A stretch of 64,000 bases of DNA, taken from the NCBI GenBank assembly GCA_018302765.1, contig JAGVZG010000003.1, positions 35,969-99,968 of the forward strand. Reading direction: 5' to 3'. Made by a program: the position numbers and the translations under genes. Below the pieces are notes generated by a model that made no database searches, was not told the origin of the DNA, and worked only from the letters and a program-made list of their open reading frames with translations. Shown piece by piece: positions 9 to 13,772 of this stretch. This DNA is from Candidatus Woesearchaeota archaeon. Its GTDB lineage: Archaea > Nanobdellota > Nanobdellia > SCGC-AAA011-G17 > GW2011-AR18. The stretch's first letter is position 1. The number at the start of each line of letters is the position of its first letter.

Positions 9-935
9 ATGCTGATAATCAGAAAAACAGCATACAAAGCTATTAAAAAAATAAAAGCTATAAATATGGATTTAAAAATAATAAAATTCTCATGGCCATT
101 ATTATTCACAGGTCTAGTATTCTCAATTACAGGATGGATAGACACATTGATGATAGCTTATTTTTCAACAGAAGAATTAGTTGGTCTGTACAATACAGCA
201 CTTCCAACTGCAGGCATAATTCTTATTACTCAAAGTTCATTTGACGGAGTATTTATTCCCATTATGTCAAGGTTATTTTCAAAAAAAGACTACAAAAACA
301 TAAAAGAAAATTACGAAAGAGTAACAAAGTGGATAACAATACTGACAATACCTTTATTCATGTCTATAATATTTTTCTCTAAGGGAATTATAAATATATT
401 ATTTGGAACGCCGTATCTAGAAGCATATAAGCCTACAATAATTCTTGCTGTGGGTTTTCTAATGGTTATGATTGTAGGTCCATGTGAAAATATGTTAAAT
501 GTAACTTTCAAAACAAAACTAAAAATGTATCTAAGAATAATAATGTTAATTATAAATATAATATTAAATCTTATACTAATCCCAAGATATGGAATAAGCG
601 GAGCTGCAATATCAACATCAGTAGCACTAACATTTTATAATATATGCTGTTTTATATATGTAAAAAATAAATTCAATGTTAATATTATAAAACTAAAAAC
701 AATTTCAATTATATTGGCCAGTGCATTATTGCCATTATTATTAAGTATTTTATACAACCCATTAAATAAGCTTGTAACAATGTCATTCATAATATTATCT
801 TTAATCTATTCAACAATAATAATCATACTAATGAAATACCTAAATAAAGAAGATATAATTATTATTTACGATATAGAAAAAAAATTAAACATAAAACACA
901 CAATAAGTTCAATATTAACAAAATACTCAAAGTAA
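9..935 (+). CDS. Wzx/MATE-like oligosaccharide flippase, C-terminal part (probably 5'-truncated by the window edge)
   Basis: Multi-TM protein with motifs typical of polysaccharide flippases (DTLMIAYF...GLYNTA; LNLILIPRYGISGAAIST); frame is open to the window edge. Confidence 0.8.
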   Translation: MLIIRKTAYKAIKKIKAINMDLKIIKFSWPLLFTGLVFSITGWIDTLMIAYFSTEELVGLYNTALPTAGIILITQSSFDGVFIPIMSRLFSKKDYKNIKENYERVTKWITILTIPLFMSIIFFSKGIINILFGTPYLEAYKPTIILAVGFLMVMIVGPCENMLNVTFKTKLKMYLRIIMLIINIILNLILIPRYGISGAAISTSVALTFYNICCFIYVKNKFNVNIIKLKTISIILASALLPLLLSILYNPLNKLVTMSFIILSLIYSTIIIILMKYLNKEDIIIIYDIEKKLNIKHTISSILTKYSK

Positions 936-938
936 TAA

Positions 939-1688
939 TCACTTAATCTTAGCAACAGCAATCCACTCATAAGGCTGCGAAGATGGTACAAGTTCTATTA
1001 ATCTAAGCAGTAAATATAAAGTATAAGTAAGTATTTTTATCTTGGAAAACTTAGAGATGAATTCCTGAACCTTAAAGTGGTTTATATTATTAACTAAACT
1101 AACAACAGTAAATTCATTATCTTCTAACTCTTTAATTATAGTTTTTTTAGTCCAGAATTCATCATAAACAGGCGAAGGATAATGTTTAGTATGCCACTTA
1201 TAAATAAACCCATTAGGAACGTCAAATATCAAATAACTATTTCTTGACATTAATTTCTTTATGCTTTTATAAAGAATTCTCCTTTTACTTATATCAAAGT
1301 GCCTAATAAATTTAAAGCTATAAACAAGATCAAATTTCTTGCCAATATTCATCTTAAAAACATCTACAACTTTCAAATTAAATCTGCCATTTAAATTAAC
1401 ATTAGCTATTTTCAACATTGCCTTGCTATTATCAACTGCTAATCCATACTTAAAACCATAAACATCTTTAGAAATCCTACCAGGACCTGTAGCAACATCT
1501 ATAACGCTGCTTATTTTTTTATCTCTAATGAATTTATTAATAAATGATATCTGATTGTGATGTATTAATCTCCCTAATGGCCTATTAAACCTGCTATTTA
1601 TATAGTCCTTAGCTAACTTCTCATTTTCATAGTACTTCTTTATTTCATTTACTGTTTTTTTCATCTTTAAATCCGAAAAATAATTCAT
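939..1688 (-). CDS. Class I SAM-dependent methyltransferase (likely start ATG at 1664)
   Basis: VIDVATGPGR motif I, AVDNSKAML, FDLVYS. Confidence 0.8.
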   Translation of the reverse strand: MNYFSDLKMKKTVNEIKKYYENEKLAKDYINSRFNRPLGRLIHHNQISFINKFIRDKKISSVIDVATGPGRISKDVYGFKYGLAVDNSKAMLKIANVNLNGRFNLKVVDVFKMNIGKKFDLVYSFKFIRHFDISKRRILYKSIKKLMSRNSYLIFDVPNGFIYKWHTKHYPSPVYDEFWTKKTIIKELEDNEFTVVSLVNNINHFKVQEFISKFSKIKILTYTLYLLLRLIELVPSSQPYEWIAVAKIK

Positions 1689-2358
1689 AAAGAACTTTTA
1701 AACCCCAAAGAAGATTAAAACCAATAAAGTAATACAATAAAAAATACTTCATAAAACCAGATAAAACAAATGAATCAATTATAGCAAATAAGAAAAAAAC
1801 ATTATGAAAATAAGGAATTAAAAACAAATTTTTATATGATCTAACTAATTTTTTCTTAAATGGAATTTTTGCAACATCTTTTCTAAAAGCCTTTTCAGGA
1901 TGGATTTTTACATCTTCTAATCTAACTAACTCCACCATAGAATAGCCAAAAATAGAAAAAACCCCAAAGAACAAAAATAATTTTGATTCTGTAGTCAAGA
2001 ATATGCTAAAAGTTAATGCAGATAAAGGTAATAAGTAAGATAACCAAGTAGAAATCCAATCAAAAAATTCTCCCCATTTAAGAGACTTTGTCTTATTATA
2101 TCTTGCAATCTCGCCATCCACATAATCCAATATTGCAGCTAATCCAAACAAAAATCCTCCTAACAAATAATTATTAAAAAAAATCAAAACAGAAGAAACA
2201 ATAACCAAGGAAGCCCAGAAAGCAGAAACTTGGTTTGCAGTTATTGGAGTATGAACCAAGACCCAGCTTATATAAGGTGAAATATATCTATAACCCATCC
2301 AGCTGACAGTAGGGGGTTGAACAATATTTTTATATTGCTTAAAACTTACCATAAACAA
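1645..2358 (-). CDS. CDP-alcohol phosphatidyl/phosphotransferase family membrane protein (likely start 2352)
   Basis: Family signature LDYVDGEIAR...GEFFD; ITANQVS. Confidence 0.85.
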   Translation of the reverse strand: MFMVSFKQYKNIVQPPTVSWMGYRYISPYISWVLVHTPITANQVSAFWASLVIVSSVLIFFNNYLLGGFLFGLAAILDYVDGEIARYNKTKSLKWGEFFDWISTWLSYLLPLSALTFSIFLTTESKLFLFFGVFSIFGYSMVELVRLEDVKIHPEKAFRKDVAKIPFKKKLVRSYKNLFLIPYFHNVFFLFAIIDSFVLSGFMKYFLLYYFIGFNLLWGLKVLYELFFGFKDEKNSK

Positions 2359-2371
2359 AACACAGTAAATA

Positions 2372-2393
2372 GTCTTTTAAAACTTATGAATTT
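2372..2393 (-). promoter_or_regulatory. TATA box with conserved upstream TTCATAA element
   Basis: Minus strand AAATTCATAAGTTTTAAAAGAC about 20 nt before ATG 2352; near-identical copies at 12541-12562 (+), 17153-17175 (-), 32249-32270 (-), 35436-35454 (+). Confidence 0.55.
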
Positions 2394-2411
2394 ACAAACT
2401 CAAAATATTAT

Positions 2412-3557
2412 TTAATAGATTTTCCTTAGCATAACTTCCAAAGCATCACGAGTAAGAACACGCGGATTATTTATAACTCTTTCAGGATTAAATCCTTCAT
2501 TTAATACAATATCAACGCCACTTTCAGTTACACCTAATTTTGATAATCTTCTTTCTAAACCTATTAAATCTAATAGACACTCAAGCTTATGTTTAACATA
2601 TAAACAATCTGTTGTATCAAACATTAAACAAAGTTCACCCATTGTATCTAAAACATAACTTATTCCTCTTTTGTCTTGAACTGTATCTTCTTCTACTGCC
2701 CCATTATAATCAAATATAGAAGGAAGAGTTAAAGCAACTGCATGACCATGCTGCACACCAAAATGTGCACTTATTGGATAAGAAACTGAATGAGGCGCAG
2801 TTGTTCTTGCTATATTTATTGCTTTCCCAGCAAGATTACTACCACAAGTCATAACTTCTCTGTGTTTGGCATATGGATTATTTACAACTTCATATAAAAC
2901 AGGCAAAATTGAAGTAATTGCATCACTGCTATATCTCTTAGATTCGTCAGTTGATCTCACTGACCAAAAAGCTTCAATAGCCTGAGCCAGAGCATCTATG
3001 CCTGTACAAGCAGTAATATAAGGATTTAAGCTTGAAGTAAGGCCTGGATCAATAATTGCAAATTCAGGAAAAACAATTTTATTATCTAATGAATACTTTT
3101 GCTTTTCCATATAAATAACAGCAAATTGTGTTGCTTCACTTCCAGTGCCTGCTGTAGTTGGTATAAGAATTTTAGGCAAACTTTTTCCTATTAGAGGAAT
3201 TTTTTTTGTGATTAAACTTTTATAATCATCAATTAATTGTGTAGATAAAACAGCAATGCATTTTGCAGTGTCTAAAACATTTCCACCTCCAATTCCAACA
3301 ACAACATCAGCTCCACTGCTGCGTGCAATAGAAACACCTTCTGCTATAGTACCAATATTAGGCAACGAAGAAGAAACAATAAAACGATTAACGTTATAAG
3401 GCGAAAGTAAAACATCAACAATTGGTTTAGCCCCACTAGCAACATAAGAAGTACTGCCTACAACAAGCATAACGTTTCTGCTGCCAAGAATATTTAAAGC
3501 TTTACTTAACTCTCGTACTTTCCCCCAGCCTTGATATTCAACAATTCCCAATTTCAT
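2412..3557 (-). CDS. Iron-containing alcohol dehydrogenase, probable phosphonoacetaldehyde reductase (PhpC-like)
   Basis: GIGGGNVLDTAK, IPTTAGTGSEAT, DALAQAIE, H...HG metal ligands; 4-nt overlap with ppd. Confidence 0.8.
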   Translation of the reverse strand: MKLGIVEYQGWGKVRELSKALNILGSRNVMLVVGSTSYVASGAKPIVDVLLSPYNVNRFIVSSSLPNIGTIAEGVSIARSSGADVVVGIGGGNVLDTAKCIAVLSTQLIDDYKSLITKKIPLIGKSLPKILIPTTAGTGSEATQFAVIYMEKQKYSLDNKIVFPEFAIIDPGLTSSLNPYITACTGIDALAQAIEAFWSVRSTDESKRYSSDAITSILPVLYEVVNNPYAKHREVMTCGSNLAGKAINIARTTAPHSVSYPISAHFGVQHGHAVALTLPSIFDYNGAVEEDTVQDKRGISYVLDTMGELCLMFDTTDCLYVKHKLECLLDLIGLERRLSKLGVTESGVDIVLNEGFNPERVINNPRVLTRDALEVMLRKIY

Positions 3558-4696
3558 CTCCTAAGAAAATCGCAGAAACGTTCTGTCAATTGATGAGGTG
3601 AAATTTTTTCTGTTATGCGGGACGCTTTAGGAATTTCAGAAGAAGAAACTTTTACATGTATAAAATTTGGGCCATCATTAATAAGAGATGTTTTAACAAG
3701 CTCAGATAATTTGCTAGCTGTCGTACAAAAAGCGCTGTTTCTGTAATCACAATTGAAAGCAACTTCTGAAAAATCAACAGTGCCTGACGTTGTTGGCTGA
3801 CCTCCTGTTGATTCATAAGATTCATTATCAATTACAATATGAACAAGATTTTTTGGTCTGTAGTGTCCTATTGAAGACATTACACCCATATGCATAAGCA
3901 AAGCTCCATCTCCATCAATAACAACAACTTTTTTATCTGTCGAACATGCTACGCCCAAACCTATTCCTGCTGCATGGCCCATTGATCCCTGCATATAAAA
4001 ATGAGAAGTTCTGTCCTGTATTGCAAAAAGCTCACGTGAACTAGTTCCAGTAGTTGAAATAACTACAACATCTTGATTAACAGAACCAACAATAGTACAT
4101 AGAGCTGTAGTTCTGCTCATTCTAAGCTTATATTCATTTTCAATAAATATATTCTTCCACTTATAATGAGGAATGTTAAAATGTCTAAAGGAATTTTCAT
4201 CATGTTCTAATACATCTTTTTTCACAACCAAAGCTACTAACTTTCTATTTTCAATAGACTCAGAATGAGCACGTTTAACACAGCCATAAGCATCAGTGTC
4301 ATTCTTAGGAAGATCATATGCAGAAATAGAAAGACTTTCAAGTATTTTACGCATTGCTTTTCCAATAATTTTATGTTGTGGTTCATCCTCTATACCATAA
4401 GCTCTTCCACTAATAAAAAACAACATTGGTATTCCAAAAGGTATGCACAATGAAGACAAAGGATTTATTGCATTTCCTAATCCAGAATTCTGCATTATAA
4501 CTACAACATTTTTTCCACCCAAATAAGCTCCTGCTGCAAAGCTTACAGCAAGTCCTTCATTAGGAGCAACAAAATAAAAAGATGTTTCATCTCTAGAAAT
4601 ATTATTTAATAATGAAATAAAGTAAGAACAAGGAACTCCAGAAAAAAAACTATAACCTTTCTCTTTTAATAATTTATATAAATCAATAGATTTCAT
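3554..4696 (-). CDS. ppd: Phosphonopyruvate decarboxylase (single-chain, TPP-dependent)
   Basis: FFSGVPCSY, NEGLAV, MQNSGLGNAINPL, EDEPQH, MQGSMGHA, DGDGALLMHMG, DNESYESTGGQPT; phosphonate cluster context. Confidence 0.9.
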   Translation of the reverse strand: MKSIDLYKLLKEKGYSFFSGVPCSYFISLLNNISRDETSFYFVAPNEGLAVSFAAGAYLGGKNVVVIMQNSGLGNAINPLSSLCIPFGIPMLFFISGRAYGIEDEPQHKIIGKAMRKILESLSISAYDLPKNDTDAYGCVKRAHSESIENRKLVALVVKKDVLEHDENSFRHFNIPHYKWKNIFIENEYKLRMSRTTALCTIVGSVNQDVVVISTTGTSSRELFAIQDRTSHFYMQGSMGHAAGIGLGVACSTDKKVVVIDGDGALLMHMGVMSSIGHYRPKNLVHIVIDNESYESTGGQPTTSGTVDFSEVAFNCDYRNSAFCTTASKLSELVKTSLINDGPNFIHVKVSSSEIPKASRITEKISPHQLTERFCDFLRR

Positions 4697-4697
4697 A

Positions 4698-6050
4698 CTA
4701 ATGCTTTCCTTCCTTATTGTACCAAGGAACTAATTCACCACAAACTCTTTCTAATCCACTTCTATCTAAAAGAGATAACTCATGCTGGGTATCTCCTGAT
4801 AAACGTCCGCCTATGCGCATAACTAATAATCTCCCAATTCCATTATCTGAAATAAAACGATGTTTCACACAAGGCTTCATATAAACAGAATCTCTAGGAT
4901 AAATATACTCATACTCCACTTGTCGATCATAACTAGATTCCCAACTAAGACCAACACGACTTTCACCAATATTGTAAATATATTGATGTCCTAAAGTTTT
5001 TAAGCTTGAAGTCTCACCTGGACGTACAGTAACTTCTAATCCTTTAGAATAAGGTAACTTAGGAGTAGAAGCAAGCTCAACAAAAGTATAAAGTCCACTT
5101 TCATCTGGATAATTCCATCTTCTAGCTTGCTCATAAGATAAATTAATCACAGGATCAGAACTTACTACAGGCATTAAATCTCTAACGCTAACACCTAAAA
5201 CTTTAGCAACAGATCTTAATTCATCTACAGTAGGAATAATATCTCTGCCATCTTCAATAGATTGCATATACTTTAAAGATAAACCAACTTTTTTAGCAAG
5301 TATGTCAAGAGGCATAGATAATTGTTCACGGAAAAACCTAATTAAAGATCCAGAAGCTCCTCCATCAGAATAATTAATTAAAAAATCAGAAGCAGAATTC
5401 AAACCTAAAACTGCTAATTCCTGCTGGGCATCACCCATTAACCTAACACCATAAGTCAAAGCAAGAATAACGCCAAGTTCTCTAGCTTCATTTTTACGAG
5501 TTGCAAAAGTATGGGGAATATAAGGTGTAATATACATTGAATCTCCTGTATTTGTCTGTACACAAAAACGTTTTCCTCCATGTTCATAATAAAAGTTAAC
5601 AGGTCCAATGAAGTATGTAAATTGATGTAAAAAATGCCCATTATTCCAGCACAGTTCTTCTGAATTAGGGTCATTATTATCAACAACTAGAAGTTCTTTT
5701 ATCCACTCTGGTCTAAAAAGAGAAGTCCTGCTCATTGCAGTGTCTCTGTATTCATAATAAGGTCTGCCTCCACGATCAAGAACACGAGAAGATCTTTCGC
5801 TTTGTTCATTAGTCATTATTAACGCACCACTACGAGCATCATCTTCAAAAACATAAAAATCCCTTATATTAACTGGCCAAATCTGAGATGCTTTAACAAT
5901 AAGTTCATGCGGTATTTCTTCTCTACCGTCAATATATCTCTGCAAAAGAGAAGTATCAATTCCTAATTCACATGCAGCAGTACTAAAATCACGTTTAAGG
6001 TCATTTAAAATGCCAAAAAAATTACGTCCCATTAATTTATTACTTAACAT
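4698..6050 (-). CDS. mpnS: Methylphosphonate synthase-like mononuclear Fe oxygenase (MpnS / class III HEPD family)
   Basis: Extensive recalled similarity to Nitrosopumilus MpnS: NFFGILNDLKR, WPVNIRDF, YYEYRDTAMS, WNNGHFLHQFTYFIGPVNFYY, NTGDSMYITPYIPHTF, MRIGGRLSGD. Start set at ATG 6050 with GGAGG SD; the ORF track extends it to 6119. Confidence 0.85.
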   Translation of the reverse strand: MLSNKLMGRNFFGILNDLKRDFSTAACELGIDTSLLQRYIDGREEIPHELIVKASQIWPVNIRDFYVFEDDARSGALIMTNEQSERSSRVLDRGGRPYYEYRDTAMSRTSLFRPEWIKELLVVDNNDPNSEELCWNNGHFLHQFTYFIGPVNFYYEHGGKRFCVQTNTGDSMYITPYIPHTFATRKNEARELGVILALTYGVRLMGDAQQELAVLGLNSASDFLINYSDGGASGSLIRFFREQLSMPLDILAKKVGLSLKYMQSIEDGRDIIPTVDELRSVAKVLGVSVRDLMPVVSSDPVINLSYEQARRWNYPDESGLYTFVELASTPKLPYSKGLEVTVRPGETSSLKTLGHQYIYNIGESRVGLSWESSYDRQVEYEYIYPRDSVYMKPCVKHRFISDNGIGRLLVMRIGGRLSGDTQHELSLLDRSGLERVCGELVPWYNKEGKH

Positions 6051-7782
6051 TCCCAACTCCTCCAAATTCAGCAACAGCAGCACAATAATTATCTGGAGAA
6101 TGTAATTCTCTCCATCCATGATTCACTTCAACACTTTTAACATTATAACCACGATCTATTATCTCTTGAATTACATCTGTCAAAGAAGCCTTGTAAATTG
6201 ATTCAGCTTCATGAAAATATCCGTCTATATACTTTCCCAAACAATCATGATAAACTTGCATTAAAGACTCTGCACCTCTTCTAGATAAATAAGTAATGCC
6301 TATAAACTCAGCACTCGCCTGTTCACAAGGAATTGATTTGCCTATTCTTAAAACACGATTTTCTGGTCTACGCAACTGTCTCAAACCTGAATTATTTGTA
6401 ACAACCAAATCTAACTTCGATTTATAGTCTGGCTCACGCAGACGATAAGAATTATCAGTAACAATAATAATATCACTATCTTGCCTTGAAGACAAAACTT
6501 TTTTAATAATTTCATCTGTAAATAAAATATCAGAGTAAACTATTAACAATTCATTATTAAATTCCTTTTCAGCACGTGCAAGTGTAGCCATTATTCCTTG
6601 ATCTTGCATACTTGCATCACAAAAACGAACACCTTGAACATAAAGTTTCTCTTCATGCTGGCCACGAATTACAACGCAATCGCTAATGCCAACATTCTTT
6701 AATGACTGAAGTTGATAATCAATAACTCTACCATCTCCAAATTGAAGAGAACTGCAAGGCTTATTAGAACACAAATCTCCTAAATTAGTATGCTTACCTG
6801 CTGCAGGAATTACTACTTTAACGCCATTTTCATAAGCCATTCCTCTGGTCTTTAAGTCATTAAATCCTACAACTTCAAAAATAGTTTTAACAGGAGTACA
6901 TAACCCATCTGCTTCTAAAGACCTTCCGTGCGCAAGAATAGATCTGGCAACGCCTTCCATACTTCTATGGGCAGCACGCAGCATATGGTTTGCATAAATT
7001 ACAACATTAAATCCTGCTTCTCTTAATTCATCTTCAGTAATAGAATTATAAGTAGTAGGAACACAAATAAGAGGTTTAAATACACCTAGCTCCCTACATA
7101 AAACATGATATTCTCTAGAAAAAGATAATACTTGGTCTGGCGTATTTTGATTAGAATGTATCATTACGCCATCAACACCTGCTTGAAGATAAATTCTAGC
7201 TCGTCCAACAGCGTCTTCTAAATCACGTCCTGCAATAAAACTTTCTATACGTGAAAAAATAAGTAAATCTTGACTTAGTCTATTATCAATACCCCTACGT
7301 AATTTAGCAGCAAAATCCTTAGGGTCTTCTAATACATGTGAAGAAGTTTTATCCAAACTATTACGTTTAGGCCAAACTTGATCCTCAACAATAACAGCAG
7401 AGACACCAAAATTAGTAAGACGCTGAAGCAAATAATCAAAATTATTAGAGTCTCCTCCAGTGTCCCCATCAACAATCAAAGGTTTGCGGGTTACATTTGT
7501 AATTTCAGCGACAGTTTCAATTCTGGAATCAAAACTCACTACTTGAACATCAGGCTGACCTTTTGCTGCTGAATCAGTAAAACTACTGACCCATATGCCA
7601 TCAAATTCTAATGCGCCATTAGAACCATCAATAATATCAACTGAAGCCTTTTCAGCCACTATTGCGCTTAAGCCATTATGTGCTTCTAAAACTCTTACAA
7701 ATCTACCATTATCAAACATAGCTCTAAGCAAACCTCTACGTTTCTCCGGAAGAATAACTTCTCTACTAGGCATTAGCATCAC
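6040..7782 (-). CDS. pepM: Phosphoenolpyruvate mutase fused to C-terminal nucleotidyltransferase (PntC/LicC-like)
   Basis: EAHNGLSA, DGIWVSS, VDGDTGG, EDQVWPKRNS, SRIES, MIHS, CVPTTY; C-terminal half VIPAAG...KP...YSDILF...EFIG...GWRE. Confidence 0.9.
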   Translation of the reverse strand: MMLMPSREVILPEKRRGLLRAMFDNGRFVRVLEAHNGLSAIVAEKASVDIIDGSNGALEFDGIWVSSFTDSAAKGQPDVQVVSFDSRIETVAEITNVTRKPLIVDGDTGGDSNNFDYLLQRLTNFGVSAVIVEDQVWPKRNSLDKTSSHVLEDPKDFAAKLRRGIDNRLSQDLLIFSRIESFIAGRDLEDAVGRARIYLQAGVDGVMIHSNQNTPDQVLSFSREYHVLCRELGVFKPLICVPTTYNSITEDELREAGFNVVIYANHMLRAAHRSMEGVARSILAHGRSLEADGLCTPVKTIFEVVGFNDLKTRGMAYENGVKVVIPAAGKHTNLGDLCSNKPCSSLQFGDGRVIDYQLQSLKNVGISDCVVIRGQHEEKLYVQGVRFCDASMQDQGIMATLARAEKEFNNELLIVYSDILFTDEIIKKVLSSRQDSDIIIVTDNSYRLREPDYKSKLDLVVTNNSGLRQLRRPENRVLRIGKSIPCEQASAEFIGITYLSRRGAESLMQVYHDCLGKYIDGYFHEAESIYKASLTDVIQEIIDRGYNVKSVEVNHGWRELHSPDNYCAAVAEFGGVGNVK

Positions 7783-7854
7783 TAAGTGATAAACAAAAAA
7801 GAGAACTTATAAAAAGTTTATGGTAACTAAAACCTGTATATTAAAGAATAATGT

Positions 7855-8595
7855 TTAATCATATTTTCCAAGAAAAGAATTAATTCTAATTCTAAACATA
7901 TCTCTCAAACCCTCAAATACAGTAGTTATTTTTACTCTTTCACTACCTACGTAATGCCACTTAACTGGAGCTCCAACAATTTTAAATCCCTTTTTCTTAG
8001 CTATGAATAAAGTTTCAATATCAAATCCAGGGTTTACAGCAGCTCTTTCAAGTTTGAAATCTTTCTTCCACCTTCGTAGCATTGAAGGAAATATGACCTT
8101 AATAGATTTTTTATTAAAAGCCTTAAACCCGCATTGTGTATCTTGGAAAGGTAAACCTAAAATAAGAACCCTTAAAACAACGTATCCATAAGCATACAAC
8201 TTTCTAATAAATGGTGCGCCTTTTCTACCTTTTCTTAAGCCTATAACCATATCATATCCTTTTTCAAAAATTGGAAAAAATTTTTCAACCTCGCTTATAG
8301 GCACAGCCTGATCCATATCAGTAAAAAGAGTTATGTCTCCACGGCTTGCAAGCAATCCAGTCATAACAGTTATTGCCTTACCACCATGTTCATTCTGTAT
8401 AAGTTTAAAATTCTTCTTATTAACAATATATTTTTTAACCAGAGAAATAGTGTTATCTTTAGACCCGTCATCAACTATTATCACTTCATAAGAATACCTC
8501 TTATTTTTAAAATAAGAAGCAACTTGTTCCAATACGTTTTTCCTTAAATTTTCTGCTTCATTATAAGCAGGTATTATCACTGACAGCTTTACCAT
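7855..8595 (-). CDS. GT2 polyprenyl/dolichyl-phosphate glycosyltransferase
   Basis: SVIIPAYNE, VDDGSKD, FTDMD, DTQCGFK, GFDIE. Confidence 0.9.
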   Translation of the reverse strand: MVKLSVIIPAYNEAENLRKNVLEQVASYFKNKRYSYEVIIVDDGSKDNTISLVKKYIVNKKNFKLIQNEHGGKAITVMTGLLASRGDITLFTDMDQAVPISEVEKFFPIFEKGYDMVIGLRKGRKGAPFIRKLYAYGYVVLRVLILGLPFQDTQCGFKAFNKKSIKVIFPSMLRRWKKDFKLERAAVNPGFDIETLFIAKKKGFKIVGAPVKWHYVGSERVKITTVFEGLRDMFRIRINSFLGKYD

Positions 8596-9841
8596 TTTTA
8601 ACAAAAGTATAAATTAGCATAAATATAAATGTTAGTACTATCAAAATAAGCAAAACAAATATCACCTGTAATAAACTGCTATGGTAAAAAACTAAAAGTA
8701 AAAATTCTAGTAATATTAATAATACCAAACCATAAACAAAATTTATTCTATTAACAGAAAGATTGTAGAAAGCAAGTAAATAAACATAAGAAAATATGCT
8801 CATCAAAAATGCAAAAATAGCTATGTATTTCGTAATAACAAGATAGCTTTTACCAAATAACACTAACACTACAAGTTTAGGGAATAATAAATAAACTAAA
8901 ATAATTCCTCCGCATAAAATAGAGACTAAAAATAAAGCTTTCTTCAATAAATGTAAGTTTTCCTTACCTAAAGCATGCATCTCAGCTACCTTGGGAAACA
9001 ATACAGAAACAATGGCAAATGAAACAAAAAATGCAATTCTTCCCAACAAAGCTGCTGCAGCATAATAGCCTGCAGTAACGTCATCAAAATAATACTTAAC
9101 TAGCATGACGTCTAAACTATAAAACAAAGTCAAAGACAGCAAAACAATAAAAACAGGCCAGGAATATTTATAAACAATTTTTGTATTTAATTTTTTATTA
9201 TATTTCTTAAAATAATTCCTTATTAGAAAAAAGCCAACTAAGAGTGAAATAATATAAGAACTAAATATTCCTAATGTTGCACCAAATACACCAAGTCCTA
9301 AAAATACAAGTATCAAACCAAAGCAAAATTTAACTATAGCTTCTATAATAAAATTATTGCCTAAACTTCTAAAGCTTTGCAGGCCCTGCAAAACCCCACG
9401 TACTACTGGCAACAAAAAAAGAGCCGGGATTGATATAGCAACAATAAATAAAACATTGATTGGAATCTTAAGATATTTGGATAAAAACAAGTAAGACAAA
9501 AAAACTAATACAGTAAAGGCACAAATACTTATCAAAAGTAATTTTCTGCTAGCTCTAACAAATAAATTACTTATGCTTTTATTATCTCCTTTTGCCTTAA
9601 ACATTGCCACAAATTTAGATATAGAAGTTTGTATAACATTAAAAGGAACTAACAAAATGTAAAATAATGATAGCACAACCCCTAAAATACCATAATCAGC
9701 AGGGCCTAAAACCCTTCCCATAACAAAATGATAAAGAAAACCAGCTAAATTCATAATCATTGTAGCTATAAAAAGAATAAAACTATCTCTAATCAAACTA
9801 TCTTCCTTAGTGTATTTAAAAAGTTTCCTTAGATAAGCCAT
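8561..9841 (-). CDS. Oligosaccharide flippase (Wzx-like)
   Basis: About 12 TM; RVLGPADYG, RGVLQG, LDVMLVKYYF, GYYAAA. Confidence 0.85.
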   Translation of the reverse strand: MAYLRKLFKYTKEDSLIRDSFILFIATMIMNLAGFLYHFVMGRVLGPADYGILGVVLSLFYILLVPFNVIQTSISKFVAMFKAKGDNKSISNLFVRASRKLLLISICAFTVLVFLSYLFLSKYLKIPINVLFIVAISIPALFLLPVVRGVLQGLQSFRSLGNNFIIEAIVKFCFGLILVFLGLGVFGATLGIFSSYIISLLVGFFLIRNYFKKYNKKLNTKIVYKYSWPVFIVLLSLTLFYSLDVMLVKYYFDDVTAGYYAAAALLGRIAFFVSFAIVSVLFPKVAEMHALGKENLHLLKKALFLVSILCGGIILVYLLFPKLVVLVLFGKSYLVITKYIAIFAFLMSIFSYVYLLAFYNLSVNRINFVYGLVLLILLEFLLLVFYHSSLLQVIFVLLILIVLTFIFMLIYTFVKNGKAVSDNTCL

Positions 9842-10833
9842 ATTAAACTACTAAAAAATAATTGAATTAATATCATAAAAAATACTATTTGTTTCTCTGT
9901 GAATTTCCCAGTTCTTGCAAAAACATGAGGAAAAGAATATATCTTATCATAATCTACTTTAACTTTGCCTTTGTAATAATAGCCATAACTCTGAGCCTTA
10001 AACCTGCTGCGTGCTTTAAGAACAAATTCGATAAAAAAAGGAATGGCACTAATAATTGCTGCTTTTTCTATATTCCCGACTATAGCAATAATAGCAATAG
10101 TTGCTCCTAATAAATAAGTCAATGAATCACCTGGAAGTATCTTGGCAGGACATTTATTATAAACATAAAAAGCAATTAAGGAAAAAAAAGCAACTAAAGC
10201 TATCAATGCTGCTATATATCTATTAAAATGATAAGCATATATTCCCAACATCCCAATATAAACTATAGCCATGCCAGTGCCAAGACCATTATAACCCTCC
10301 AACATATTTACCATGTTAGAAGCACCAACAACACCTATTGGAATAATAAATAAAGGATAAAATATCCCTATATCAACAACACTGAAAATAGGCAACCACA
10401 TCTCTGTATTTCCTGCATTAACAACCATTAAAGGGACAGCAGCAGTAAGAGTCAATAATGGCTTCTCCCACTGCTTCAAGCCTATTGAATAATCTTTAGA
10501 ACTTTTAATTACTAGATCATCTAAAAAACCAACTAGTGTTATTATAAACAAACTAACCATGCTAGCAAACAACAGCATTAGATTTCTATCAGTAGCCACA
10601 AGCCCAACTTTTCCCGTAACAAAAAAAGTTCTATAAAAAATAAACAGTAATAAACCAGAGAACACCCCAACAAGTACTGCAAGACCACCAGATATAGGAA
10701 CTAGTGGCTTGTCTTTTTTATTTTGATCTTTAACAACCAAACCTATTTTTACAAGATATTTTATTAACCAAGGTGTAATAAAATAAACTACAAGAAAACT
10801 TACAATGCCATAAGAAAAAATTGAATAATTCAT
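9829..10833 (-). CDS. MraY/AglH-type polyprenyl-phosphate HexNAc-1-phosphate transferase
   Basis: GGLAV, VGFLDD, NMVNMLEGYNG, ILPGDS. Confidence 0.85.
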   Translation of the reverse strand: MNYSIFSYGIVSFLVVYFITPWLIKYLVKIGLVVKDQNKKDKPLVPISGGLAVLVGVFSGLLLFIFYRTFFVTGKVGLVATDRNLMLLFASMVSLFIITLVGFLDDLVIKSSKDYSIGLKQWEKPLLTLTAAVPLMVVNAGNTEMWLPIFSVVDIGIFYPLFIIPIGVVGASNMVNMLEGYNGLGTGMAIVYIGMLGIYAYHFNRYIAALIALVAFFSLIAFYVYNKCPAKILPGDSLTYLLGATIAIIAIVGNIEKAAIISAIPFFIEFVLKARSRFKAQSYGYYYKGKVKVDYDKIYSFPHVFARTGKFTEKQIVFFMILIQLFFSSLIWLI

Positions 10834-10900
10834 TAAAGTATTTGAAAAATTGTCATATTAAAAACTTTGTGAATTTGTTATTATCTAAGCAAACAAAAAA

Positions 10901-12460
10901 TCAAAATTTAATGACTTCAACTTGCCCGAATTTTTTAGTATTGTTTGAGAAAGAATTAATAAAATCATTTTCCTCCTTGCTTAATTTTCTTGGAAAATCT
11001 CTGCTAACTCTGTCAAGTATTAAATAACCACTTGTATTATTGAGTTCAAAAATGTCTTTTACAAGAATATAATTAGGTCTTGTAACCCTGTAATCAAATA
11101 AACTTTTATAATCAACTATCCTCGAAGCTTCAAAAACATTAGGATTATTTGTCCCAGAATCACTTAATATATAATCAACAGACTGAAGTTTAAACTTATA
11201 AGGTATACCATAAGTTGCACCTGTTCCACCAATTTCTGAAATAGAAAAATAAAAACTAATTACAAAAAATAATTGCAAGATTACAAAAATAGCTAAAATC
11301 ACAGCCAATGCTAATCTAAAAACCTCTCTAATTCTATCCAATACAAAAATCAACCCTAAAGAAGATATAATAAAAATAACAGGAAATAAAACTATAAGAT
11401 TATGAGGCATAACGCTCTTATTTCTAATAATCATAAGAACTATAGGAACTAAAAACCATAAAGCTAACGTTAAATACCTAAAATCAAGATTTTTATATTT
11501 TTTATCATAGATATAATACTTAAAGAAATAAATAAAAAGCACTATAAATAAAATGGAAAATATAAAAGGTAAATAACTATAAATAAAATCAAAAAAACCA
11601 TTAAAAACCTTAAAGTCTCCAGTAAGATAACTTCCAAAATAACCGCTGGAAAATATAAAAGGCATTGCTATAGCATCTCTAAAATTAATTAAAACAGAAC
11701 TATCCCTTAAGGCACTTTTTGTATAATGGAGTACTGTAAATCCTTCATTTAACGGACTAGACCCAATAACATAACTATTTATAATAAAAGGAACAAAAGT
11801 TAAAATAAAAACCAAAAGACTAATACAAACCATTCTATAATCAAAACTAAATTTCAACTTAAGATAAAATAAAAATAAAGCAAGAAATACAACAAAATAT
11901 AATTGCAAACCAGCAGGATATGGGTGGGTAATAAAACCCAAAAATAAAGCCATAGGAACAAGCCATATCTGCTTCTTTTCCACAAGAACCTTAAATAAAG
12001 AAAAAAAGATAGGTATAATTAAAATAGGTAAATAATTAGGAGCCCAAGGATAATTTGAGTAAAGAATAACATGCCAAGGATTAATAGCATAAAGCAAAGA
12101 AGCCAAGACTGCAGCACGATTGGAGAAAAACCTATTGACAAAAATATAAGTAAATAAAACAGCAAGGCTATTTAATAGAGCCATGAACAAACCAGCAAAT
12201 ATATAATTTTTTGTAATTGTTCTAACCAAAGACAATAAATAAAAATGAAAAGGTCCAAAAGTTTGCTGTGTCCTGAATTCACCTTGTGTAGGTACCATTC
12301 CGCCTAAATAAAAATCTCCACTAGATATTTTATCAGCGTAATCCATTTGCTGAACAATATCTCCATCAAATAAAGTAAAATCCAAAAAACTAATTCGTAA
12401 AATAAAAGCAAGAAGAAATATTGCCAATGGGATTAAGAATTTTTTATGCTTTAATAACAT
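10901..12460 (-). CDS. GT-C fold (ArnT/PMT-like) glycosyltransferase
   Basis: N-terminal TM then acidic loop (FDGD), many TMs, soluble C-terminus; paralog of 21923-23389. Confidence 0.7.
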   Translation of the reverse strand: MLLKHKKFLIPLAIFLLAFILRISFLDFTLFDGDIVQQMDYADKISSGDFYLGGMVPTQGEFRTQQTFGPFHFYLLSLVRTITKNYIFAGLFMALLNSLAVLFTYIFVNRFFSNRAAVLASLLYAINPWHVILYSNYPWAPNYLPILIIPIFFSLFKVLVEKKQIWLVPMALFLGFITHPYPAGLQLYFVVFLALFLFYLKLKFSFDYRMVCISLLVFILTFVPFIINSYVIGSSPLNEGFTVLHYTKSALRDSSVLINFRDAIAMPFIFSSGYFGSYLTGDFKVFNGFFDFIYSYLPFIFSILFIVLFIYFFKYYIYDKKYKNLDFRYLTLALWFLVPIVLMIIRNKSVMPHNLIVLFPVIFIISSLGLIFVLDRIREVFRLALAVILAIFVILQLFFVISFYFSISEIGGTGATYGIPYKFKLQSVDYILSDSGTNNPNVFEASRIVDYKSLFDYRVTRPNYILVKDIFELNNTSGYLILDRVSRDFPRKLSKEENDFINSFSNNTKKFGQVEVIKF

Positions 12461-12578
12461 AAAAATAAAAATGCAAAAATATTTATAAATTATACTATTA
12501 AATTAACTATAACGACATACGTTATTCTAATCGATTAGGGTTCATAAATTTTATAAAGACCCATAAAAGCAAAACAAG

Positions 12579-13772
12579 ATGGATAAACTGGGGATAAATG
12601 GTGGAAGACCAGTTAGAGATAATTTTCTAGTCTTTGGAAAACCACATATTACTGAAAAAGACATAGAAGAAGTAGTAGACACTCTAAAAACAGGATGGAT
12701 TGGTTTTGGACCAAAATCAATAAAATTTGAAAATCTGTTCAAAGAATACATAGGAACAAAAAATGCTGTTAGTGTAAGCTCATGTACTGCTGCATTAGAC
12801 CTATCGCTAAAATTATACGGAATAAAAGAAGGAGATGAAGTTATAACAACGCCATTGACTTTTGCATCAACAGCAAATGTAATAGTACACAACAAAGCTA
12901 CACCTATATTCGTAGATGTAATAAAAGAAACACAGAATATCGATCCTAGAAAAATAGAAGAAGCAATAACTCCAAAGACAAAAGCAGTTATACCAGTACA
13001 TCTAGCTGGGAGACCATGTGATATTAAACAGATAGTAGAAATATGCGAAAAACATGGTTTAAAAATAATATGGGATTGTGCACACGCAATAGAAGCTGAA
13101 TACAGTGGGAAAAAAGTAGGTAGTTATGAAAACATATGTGCATTTAGTTTCTATCCTACTAAAAACATAACTACATGTGAAGGTGGAATGATAACTACAA
13201 ATGATGATGAAATAGCTAGGAAAGCAGAAGTATATAGATTACAAGGAATGAGTAGAGACGCATGGAAAAGATATAGTGAAGAAGGATTCAAACCTTATGA
13301 TGTAATAATGCCTGGTTTTAAATATAATATTACAGACTTACAAGCCGCACTGGGAATTAATCAGTTAATAGAAATAGAAGAGAAATGGAAAGTAAGAGAC
13401 AAAATATTCAAGAAATATAATGAAGAATTCTCAAAATTAGATTCTGTAATGACACCAGTAGAAGTCGAAGAGAAAAATAAACATGCTAGGCATCTTTACA
13501 CACTACTATTAAAAATTGAAAATCTAAGTGCTACAAGAAATGAAATATGTGCAGCCCTACAAGCAGAAAACATAGGATCAGGAATACATTTCATAGGACT
13601 AAATCTGACAAAATACTACAAAGAAAACCACAAATTCAAAAATTTGCCAAATGCAGGATATATATCTGAAAGAACATTATCACTTCCTCTGGCCTCAAAC
13701 TTAACTGAGAAAGATACAGATGATGTAATAGAAGCTGTAAAAAAAGTCATTAAACACTATGAAAGAAAATAA
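12579..13772 (+). CDS. DegT/DnrJ/ArnB family PLP-dependent sugar aminotransferase
   Basis: GDEVITTPLTFAST, PVHLAG, DCAHA, FSFYPTKNITTCEGG. Confidence 0.92.
   Translation: MDKLGINGGRPVRDNFLVFGKPHITEKDIEEVVDTLKTGWIGFGPKSIKFENLFKEYIGTKNAVSVSSCTAALDLSLKLYGIKEGDEVITTPLTFASTANVIVHNKATPIFVDVIKETQNIDPRKIEEAITPKTKAVIPVHLAGRPCDIKQIVEICEKHGLKIIWDCAHAIEAEYSGKKVGSYENICAFSFYPTKNITTCEGGMITTNDDEIARKAEVYRLQGMSRDAWKRYSEEGFKPYDVIMPGFKYNITDLQAALGINQLIEIEEKWKVRDKIFKKYNEEFSKLDSVMTPVEVEEKNKHARHLYTLLLKIENLSATRNEICAALQAENIGSGIHFIGLNLTKYYKENHKFKNLPNAGYISERTLSLPLASNLTEKDTDDVIEAVKKVIKHYERK

Follow-up and report, generated by a model that had tools for sequence, protein, structure and literature searches.

A complete methylphosphonate cassette beside a divergent CDP-alcohol phosphotransferase in the surface-glycan island of a DPANN archaeon: a candidate route for phosphonate transfer

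The methylphosphonate (MPn) cluster of Nitrosopumilus maritimus was reportedly described by Metcalf and colleagues in 2012, with its MPn thought to be esterified to a surface polymer, and we know of no producer for which the mode of MPn attachment to a macromolecule is known. The question matters because aerobic methane formation is thought to draw on methylphosphonate esters. A precedent for a transfer step comes from the "Burkholderiales_CDP-OH" or Group 1 phosphonolipid clusters (Yu et al. 2013, as cited in Li & Horsman 2022, PMC8942020), for which the latter paper gives a seven-gene core of Ppm, Ppd, AEPT, an alpha-ketoglutarate (alpha-KG) oxygenase, two PntCs (one of them fused to Ppm), and two phospholipid-synthesis genes. 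Phosphonate clusters of Nostoc and Burkholderia likewise carry an annotated CDP-alcohol phosphatidyltransferase (PMC5987646 Fig. 7), and both PepM-fused nucleotidyltransferases (NTs) and activation by PntC have been described (PMC6697681). Here, we analyze a stretch of 64,000 nucleotides (contig C10:35969-99968, hereafter the window) from a Candidatus Woesearchaeota archaeon, whose 1.02-Mb assembly in 28 contigs is rated 100% complete, and in which an MPn cassette abuts a divergent CDP-alcohol phosphotransferase (CDP-AP), which we term P0001. An AOA or SAR11 origin, suggested by the low G+C content, was rejected, since relatives are labeled Woesearchaeota or Nanoarchaeota and no archaeal AmoA was found, in a search whose control genomes could give no positive signal; the archaeal 16S model likewise matched nothing in the assembly. 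As the pairing of a PepM-fused NT with a CDP-OH transferase is already known in its general logic, the gain is a refinement and not a new principle. New elements are MPn as the head group, the DPANN host, and a transferase whose catalytic motif is altered (although the literature was not searched specifically for a clade of this kind), along with a transferase module that is probably older than the cassette at this site and a refinement regarding which NT partners MpnS. Our literature search returned no paper linking MpnS with DPANN archaea and none on a CDP-AP partner for MPn.

The locus has a mosaic structure. Within a surface-glycan island of this Woesearchaeota-type DPANN archaeon, a complete methylphosphonate cassette (PepM-NT, MpnS, Ppd, and Pdh; 2412-7782) is placed between a Wzx-GT2 pair and a module consisting of the CDP-AP, a methyltransferase (MT), and a convergent flippase. 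Going by the well-characterized families to which its enzymes belong, the cassette would convert phosphoenolpyruvate (PEP) to phosphonopyruvate (PepM), then to phosphonoacetaldehyde (Ppd), 2-hydroxyethylphosphonate (2-HEP; Pdh), and finally MPn (MpnS). The MPn, or the 2-HEP, would be cytidylylated by an NT encoded on contig C11 and possibly also by the PepM-fused domain. P0001, acting at the cytoplasmic face, would then use CMP-MPn or CMP-HEP as the phosphonyl donor for a hydroxyl on a membrane-bound acceptor, releasing CMP, and the adjacent convergent Wzx-type flippase would flip the product. Judged from sequence, we give this whole route, from phosphonate through CMP-phosphonate and transfer by P0001 to flipping, a probability of about one in two. 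The chemistry of P0001 would, by analogy, be the phosphonate counterpart of CDP-alcohol transfer, and the glycan island, the flippases, and the PMT_2 neighbors seen in relatives favor a lipid-linked glycan or carrier as the acceptor. The link between P0001 and phosphonates is likely rather than proven, because homologs of P0001 and the MT also exist without phosphonate genes.

All genes in 939-7782 are on the minus strand, and profile searches gave strong family matches that are not attributable to chance. They recovered the whole gene content proposed in the initial annotation, namely a PepM-NT fusion, an iron-dependent alcohol dehydrogenase (Fe-ADH), a CDP-AP overlapping an MT, and a convergent flippase:

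6850-7782, minus strand: PepM, the PEP mutase domain of the fusion gene 6040-7782 (PF13714 at residues 20-283, E 1.4e-46; TIGR02320, 312.8 bits; PDB 5unc, E 3.5e-45).
6040-6849, minus strand: NTP_transf_3 domain of the LicC/PntC superfamily, C-terminal in the PepM fusion (PF12804 at residues 323-447, 37.5 bits versus a cut-off of 27; LicC 1jyk, E 6e-6).
4698-6119, minus strand: MpnS, a bi-cupin/HTH oxygenase (PDB 6b9s, E 2e-128).
3554-4696, minus strand: Ppd, phosphonopyruvate decarboxylase (TIGR03297, 360.2 bits versus a cut-off of 312.5).
2412-3557, minus strand: Fe-ADH (Pdh, phosphonoacetaldehyde reductase; PF00465, PF25137; the best NCBIfam match is the phosphonate-type Fe-ADH TIGR03405, under its cut-off).
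1645-2358, minus strand: CDP-AP (P0001, 237 aa; PF01066 at residues 40-150, 32.5 bits versus a cut-off of 22).
939-1688, minus strand: MT (P0002), a class I SAM methyltransferase (PF13649, PF08241).
9-935, plus strand: 3' part of a Wzx/MurJ-like flippase (Polysacc_synt; PF01943, PF13440, PF03023).
7855-8604, minus strand: GT2 glycosyltransferase, upstream flank of the cassette (Pfam match).
8561-9841, minus strand: second Wzx-type flippase, upstream flank of the cassette (Pfam match).

The frames of the MT and P0001 share 44 nt (20 nt if the second ATG is the start), and the flippase gene (504 aa), which starts 579 nt before the window, is convergent with the MT. The Pdh shows 42-47% identity with the Pdh genes of other mpnS and HEP operons. 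The start of MpnS is probably the ATG at 6032. Born et al. are said in 2017 to have separated MpnS from the related HEPD by a 2-His-1-Gln iron site together with Phe162 and Ile184 (N. maritimus numbering). At the equivalents of H148/Q152/F162/I184/H190, with numbering checked on the 6b9s alignment, the window protein reads HQFIH. The same five residues recur in 44 related loci, whereas the 6b9r HEPD and 36 actinomycete-type HEPD loci read HQYGH. Because of the 6b9s match and these diagnostic residues, we take the window oxygenase to be a true MpnS and not a HEPD. The PepM motif (window 7340-7400) reads EDQVWPKRNS, where seven related PepMs have EDKxxxxxNS, with the loop Lys and the Asn-Ser kept; a survey that requires EDK would overlook such a gene.

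The locus shares the logic of the Group 1 phosphonolipid clusters, not membership in that group. Both feature a PepM fused to a PF12804 NT, a second PntC-type NT, Ppd, and a CDP-AP, and in both a CMP-phosphonate is predicted to be handed to a membrane transferase, the products being predictions in either case. In contrast, the Group 1 clusters of Proteobacteria and cyanobacteria supply 2-aminoethylphosphonate (AEP) or 1-hydroxy-AEP by means of AEPT and the alpha-KG oxygenase, whereas the window supplies MPn by means of Pdh and MpnS in a DPANN archaeon; neither AEPT nor the alpha-KG oxygenase of the Group 1 core was found in 939-7782, which has only one CDP-AP. Further, the second NT of the window's genome is unlinked (on C11), the CDP-AP lacks the fourth Asp of its signature, and it seems to pre-date the cassette. 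The N. maritimus cluster is alike in having PepM, Ppd, Pdh, MpnS, and an NT, and the window MpnS is ~48% identical to Nitrosopumilaceae MpnS genes (tblastn). Unlike the window, the Nitrosopumilaceae loci examined keep PepM unfused and Ppd split, include a stand-alone canonical NT in the operon, and have no CDP-AP in the surrounding 10 kb; the last was also true of the Chloroflexota mpnS loci examined. A third comparison is offered by the early fosfomycin pathway (Fom1 CyTase-PepM, Fom2, FomC, Fom3; PMC6697681), where a cytidylyltransferase is likewise fused to PepM and CMP-HEP is a real intermediate. The window fusion differs in carrying a C-terminal PF12804 domain instead of an N-terminal PF01467 domain, there is no FomD- or Fom4-like step, and the proposed product is a surface decoration, not an antibiotic. 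The Fom1-type PF01467-PepM fusion itself occurs in two related genomes (G032 and G052) and in mpnS operons of the L117/L120 type, with G032 also having a B12 radical-SAM gene.

The genome holds three PF01066 genes: P0001 and one each on contigs C5 and C3. The C5 copy scores best on PgsA/ClsA-type models and the C3 copy on the archaetidylinositol-phosphate-synthase model, both under the equivalog cut-offs and both with the full canonical signature. P0001 in turn fails the NCBIfam housekeeping equivalogs for archaetidylinositol-phosphate and archaetidylserine synthases by a wide gap (NF040950, 39.9 versus a cut-off of 180; NF038087, 16.9 versus 240). By these scores, P0001 is a third, divergent CDP-AP paralog and no housekeeping archaetidylinositol or archaetidylserine synthase, as the proposal in the initial annotation requires; the other two CDP-APs also fall outside its clade. 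Its AlphaFold2 (AF2) model (pLDDT 87.1, pTM 0.84) displays the six-transmembrane-helix core fold of AF2299, DIPPS, and PIPS, and Foldseek retrieved AF2299 (E 5e-6, TM 0.65-0.68), IPCT-DIPPS 4mnd (TM 0.65), and PIPS 5d91 (TM 0.65). The best sequence matches are likewise AF2299 and IPCT-DIPPS, which we take to use soluble CDP-alcohol donors, with CDP-glycerol chemistry in the AF2299 structures and CDP-inositol chemistry in DIPPS. With these two Archaeoglobus fulgidus proteins (4o6m/4o6n/4q7c and 4mnd, respectively) P0001 shares the six-helix core, the D1xxD2GxxAR...GxxxD3 motif, and the N/S cytosine-binding motif, at ~20-22% identity. Unlike P0001, which has Thr104 at the fourth position and no extra domain, both possess the fourth Asp and a cytosolic N-terminal domain.

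The CDP-AP signature D1xxD2G1xxAR...G2xxxD3xxxD4 comprises eight residues described as "absolutely conserved", with D4 as the putative catalytic base (PMC4634129). P0001 has seven of the eight (D78, D81, G82, A85, R86, G96, and D100), with the fourth Asp replaced by Thr104. Its version of the cytosine-binding motif, P(D/N)xx(T/S) at the start of the first transmembrane helix (PMC4634129), is A-N42-Q-V-S45, in which the Asn and Ser are kept and the Pro is replaced by Ala; this Pro is present in the relative P0005. P0001 could in principle be a catalytically impaired, binding-only or regulatory remnant, with the cluster producing free or differently processed MPn or HEP. A D-to-N change of D4 does nearly abolish the activity of PIP synthase, a characterized family member, while substrate binding is retained (PMC4634129). 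We nevertheless consider a remnant very improbable: the other seven signature residues and the N/S pair are kept, and the replacement of D4 is conserved across the clade. Thr is found in the two nearest homologs (58-60% identity), Ser in those of G057, G052, and G032, and His in most others, the tally among the 150 best cluster representatives being His 91, Asp 11, Thr 8, Gly 8, and Ser 6. Around 2,000 representatives match at E<=1e-10. Clade-wide conservation of the replacement, together with thousands of members with intact frames, therefore argues for an altered mechanism rather than decay. For the majority of the clade, a His at this position could act as the base, a role that Thr or Ser could not fill in the same manner.

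In a tree of 99 CDP-AP rows from the fetched loci, obtained by a quick IQ-TREE search and with many long branches, every non-Asp variant falls in one clade (48 of 99 rows, SH-aLRT 99), and the C5 and C3 copies lie outside it. Fusions of a CDP-AP with PepM or an NT were sought among the long representatives and none was found; those that did turn up join it to GINT1_N (P0050) and HAD (L146). Very tentatively, and with more doubt than confidence, we suggest that the D4-less clade might be a dedicated, uncharacterized family of small-head-group transferases, which would use a base other than Asp to transfer CMP-phosphonates (MPn, HEP, AEP) or CDP-linked small alcohols, supplied by a partner cytidylyltransferase, to lipid-linked glycans or polyprenol carriers. 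If so, the clade would supply the "phosphonyl transferase" still missing from the phosphonoglycan pathways of archaea and many bacteria, and it would be the first branch of the CDP-APs to decorate glycans instead of building lipids.

A transferase of this kind calls for an activated donor, which the initial annotation had assigned to the PepM-fused cytidylyltransferase. The NT domain is indeed C-terminal in the fusion and matches PF12804, yet it is non-canonical. Members of the NTP_transferase superfamily carry an N-terminal nucleotide-binding signature, G-x-G-T-R ... P-K, which is evident in LicC in the alignment. In its place the fused domain reads AAGKHTNLG...NKP. The Arg is absent from all six PepM-fused domains aligned, and the window and its two closest relatives (L036 and L053) have the PK shifted or lost; in the Chloroflexota fusions the Arg is replaced by Glu and the PK kept. 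Among 16 aligned stand-alone NT genes both Arg and PK are mostly kept. One such canonical NTP_transf_3 gene is present in the window's genome at C11:4177-4965 (locus L114/L020), where it lies between ThiF-like and ThiI-like genes and reads AAGSSKRLRPLTENLPK. It shows 58% identity with the N-terminal NT of the G048 mpnS-operon protein, 40-46% identity with NT genes abutting MpnS in gammaproteobacterial (Agarilytica, Marinicella) and Myxococcota metagenome-assembled genomes (MAGs; L145, L148, L149, L157), and 71% identity with an NT near a Ser-variant CDP-AP in L060. NTs of the C11 type occur within 10 kb in 30 of 44 MpnS-type loci versus none of 36 HEPD-type loci, being directly adjacent to MpnS in 12 and sharing one stop-to-stop frame with it in 8, which is not a proven fusion. 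Since the fused domain is atypical and orthologs of the C11 NT accompany MpnS elsewhere, the unlinked C11 NT is the more likely candidate for the MPn activator in this genome; the divergent PepM-fused domain may contribute to cytidylylation too. The domains fused to Ppm were not those assayed by Rice et al., who worked on Ari1348 and Tde1415 of those clusters (PMC6697681).

The single NT-MpnS frames come from L127, L131, L132, L133, L134, L139, L144, and L189, which belong to Chloroflexota/Limnocylindria, Planctomycetota, and one unclassified bacterium. They suggest NT-MpnS fusion proteins; a question then is whether a CMP-linked substrate is what MpnS there acts on or hands over to.

The linkage of the P0001 clade to phosphonate genes was counted in loci fetched by similarity, with related genomes included, and the samples are not independent. 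Among 60 related genomes, only G052, G032, and G048 gave a PepM match, with a P0001 homolog 2-5 kb away in all three; in G048 the genes run in a single direction in the order MpnS, NT-PepM-NT, Ppd, Pdh, CDP-AP. Across 80 loci of P0001 relatives from many phyla, PepM lies within 10 kb in 6 and a LicC/PntC-like NT in 12, and other members adjoin PMT_2/GT-C enzymes and flippases. Viewed from the oxygenase, 8 of 44 MpnS-type loci have a CDP-AP at a distance of up to 10 kb, versus none of 36 HEPD-type loci. Six of the eight are MAGs labeled Nanoarchaeota, Woesearchaeota, or "uncultured Methanosarcinales", all sharing the Fom1-type PepM fusion; another is G048 (L153), and the last is gammaproteobacterial, with a CDP-AP that is a HAD fusion 8 kb away. 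His occupies the D4 position in six of these eight CDP-APs. In the tree, PepM linkage is seen in 15 of the 48 non-Asp-clade rows versus 2 of 51 outside, i.e., 15 of 17 PepM-linked CDP-APs belong to the clade, a count biased upwards by the MpnS-fetched loci, without which 7 clade rows remain versus 2 outside. Thus, the expectation in the initial annotation that the transferase would co-occur with mpnS was borne out in part: P0001 relatives recur beside PepM and mpnS in DPANN-type archaea, but the co-occurrence tracks PepM and cytidylyltransferases generally and not mpnS specifically.

Four of the MAG loci (L117, L120, L121, L124) share a common operon of CTP_transf_like-PepM, MpnS, a 306-315-aa protein without a Pfam match, Ppd, Pdh, a cytidylate kinase, and the CDP-AP. 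The kinase (L120:14612-15406, with equivalents in L117, L121, and L124; PF02224, E 1e-50) immediately precedes the CDP-AP. A kinase for CMP next to a transferase that releases it fits CMP recycling well. The only PF02224 match in the window's genome is weak and under the cut-off (C11:19786-19887). A conserved gene of 306-324 aa without a Pfam match separates MpnS from Ppd in mpnS operons of the DPANN type (L120:11383-12303, L117:5138-6085, L121:11307-12281, L116:11350-12288) and is absent from the window's cassette.

Several observations weigh against phosphonate transfer by P0001. The enzyme lacks the proposed catalytic base (Thr104 at D4), the PepM has EDQ in place of the EDK of its relatives, the cluster itself encodes no cytidylyltransferase other than the non-canonical fused domain, and the canonical MpnS-partner NT is on another contig (C11) than the cassette. 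The closest locus read, a 2.5-kb metagenome contig (L194), has Wzx (73% identity to 8561-9841), GT2 (38%), CDP-AP (60%), and MT (63%) contiguously, with nothing between GT2 and CDP-AP; it thereby possesses the CDP-AP/MT pair without phosphonate genes. G057 (100% complete) and L069 also keep the flippase/CDP-AP/MT trio, with the orthologous flippase converging on the pair, and carry an NTP_transf_3 gene, B12 radical-SAM genes, and a PMT_2 enzyme, while no PepM was found in them with the query used. The G+C content steps at the cassette borders, from 33-36% in the five cassette domains to 25-28% in the CDP-AP, MT, and flippase (genome 30.2%), although part of this gap may reflect membrane-protein composition only, and the adjacency may be an accident of insertion. 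The MT family, finally, tracks glycan loci and not phosphonate genes. The initial annotation's reading of the CDP-AP as a phosphonyl transferase is left in an intermediate position: P0001 is an extra paralog from a clade linked to PepM, but its D4 is missing and its closest loci are without phosphonate genes.

Because L194 is without the cassette, no PepM was found in G057 and L069, and the cassette is richer in G+C, we consider that it was probably inserted between the GT2 and a resident CDP-AP/MT module, which would probably be the older occupant of the site; loss of the cassette in L194 would be the alternative history. Direct or inverted repeats were sought at the cassette borders as an insertion scar, and nothing beyond chance-level short matches was found. 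Such a history opens the possibility, which we hold to be doubtful but worth weighing, that the pair is a resident glycan or lipid head-group module using an ordinary CDP-alcohol, e.g., a phospho-alcohol activated by an NT of the C11 type, with the MPn cassette merely adjacent and MPn attached by an unrecognized enzyme or another CDP-AP. Besides the same flanks without a cassette in L194, the persistence of the trio and an NTP_transf_3 gene without PepM in G057 and L069, and the G+C step, this would account for L060, an 8.7-kb contig without PepM that pairs its C11-type NT with a Ser-variant CDP-AP, and for the presence of PepM within 10 kb in only 6 of the 80 loci. On the other side, PepM linkage in the clade is far over the background outside it, all three PepM-positive relatives carry the P0001 homolog beside PepM, and other mpnS operons end in a CDP-AP. 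The genome also has no other known CMP/CDP-head-group transferase family; LicD, TagF-like, sulfatase, PF01663, and PF01467 proteins, sought as alternative transferases or activators, were not found in this 100%-complete genome. Moreover, selection could itself have favored an insertion that placed the cassette exactly upstream of a compatible transferase.

If P0001 does transfer a phosphonyl group, the acceptor might be a lipid instead of a glycan, with a methylphosphonyl or hydroxyethylphosphonyl group going to a diether or diacyl glycerol in a Kennedy-type reaction; this is a sub-variant of the favored route that differs in the acceptor only, and we view it as unlikely. It draws on the fact that, to our knowledge, all characterized CDP-APs make a lipid or a small solute and none a glycan. 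DPANN archaea are, on the other hand, generally thought to be without lipid synthesis of their own. Clusters with PepM, two PntCs, and CDP-OH are predicted makers of phosphonolipids (PMC8942020, PMC5987646), but P0001 is surrounded by GT2 and GT4 genes, sugar-modifying genes, and two Wzx-type flippases, its relatives adjoin PMT_2/GT-C enzymes and flippases, and the short six-helix architecture has been ascribed to members with soluble acceptors (PMC4634129). Such weight as remains after these readings falls to other unrecognized transferases or a free product.

The MT had been placed by the initial annotation in the phosphonate route, and its gene neighborhoods did not support this. Its homologs are beside the CDP-AP in L194, G057/L033, and L069, and on a 59-kb contig encoding the closest pair, P0006 and P0021, and it is kept next to the CDP-AP only in the nearest relatives. 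In the wider family it is CDP-AP-adjacent in 2 of 18 loci and PepM-adjacent in none of the 18, where it accompanies flippases, GT1, and B12 radical-SAM genes. A role as a phosphonate O-methyltransferase was dropped, as PDB and NCBIfam gave no informative matches and there was no linkage to PepM; the MT probably modifies the same acceptor or the glycan, not the phosphonate.

Returning to transfer by P0001 from a CMP-phosphonate, its locus and relatives offer a concrete, testable candidate for the MPn transfer step in DPANN archaea, with the canonical cytidylyltransferase as a hallmark partner of MpnS. Further, a CDP-AP/MT pair that pre-exists in glycan islands could be combined with different head-group supply cassettes, which would be useful for predicting the surface chemistry of uncultured archaea.

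Some further observations concern the island and related loci. Within the glycan island, a 519-aa open reading frame (window 10901-12460, minus strand) has no Pfam match at E<=0.001. The mpnS operons of L117, L121, L122, and L124, labeled "uncultured Methanosarcinales archaeon", are near-identical in order and sequence to those of the Nanoarchaeota/Woesearchaeota MAGs L116 and L120, and the label of these bins may be unreliable. In L025 (G052:C5), CyTase-PepM, Ppd, and Pdh are immediately followed, at 9399-11910, by two CDP-AP genes with a radical-SAM/SPASM gene between them; one of the two CDP-APs has an aberrant motif without G2. A fosfomycin-like set in L026 (G032:C1:112000-130000), at 4465-12966, combines CyTase-PepM, Ppd, and Pdh with a B12 radical-SAM gene and a CTP_transf_like gene that stands alone; it is followed by a CDP-AP of the Ser variant and a PMT_2 (GT-C) gene, and it suggests Fom3-like C-methylation of CMP-HEP before transfer. 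A B12-binding radical-SAM gene also lies just before the window (G000:C10:29742-35048), and its homologs occur within 10 kb of a non-Asp CDP-AP in at least 15 archaeal and bacterial loci.

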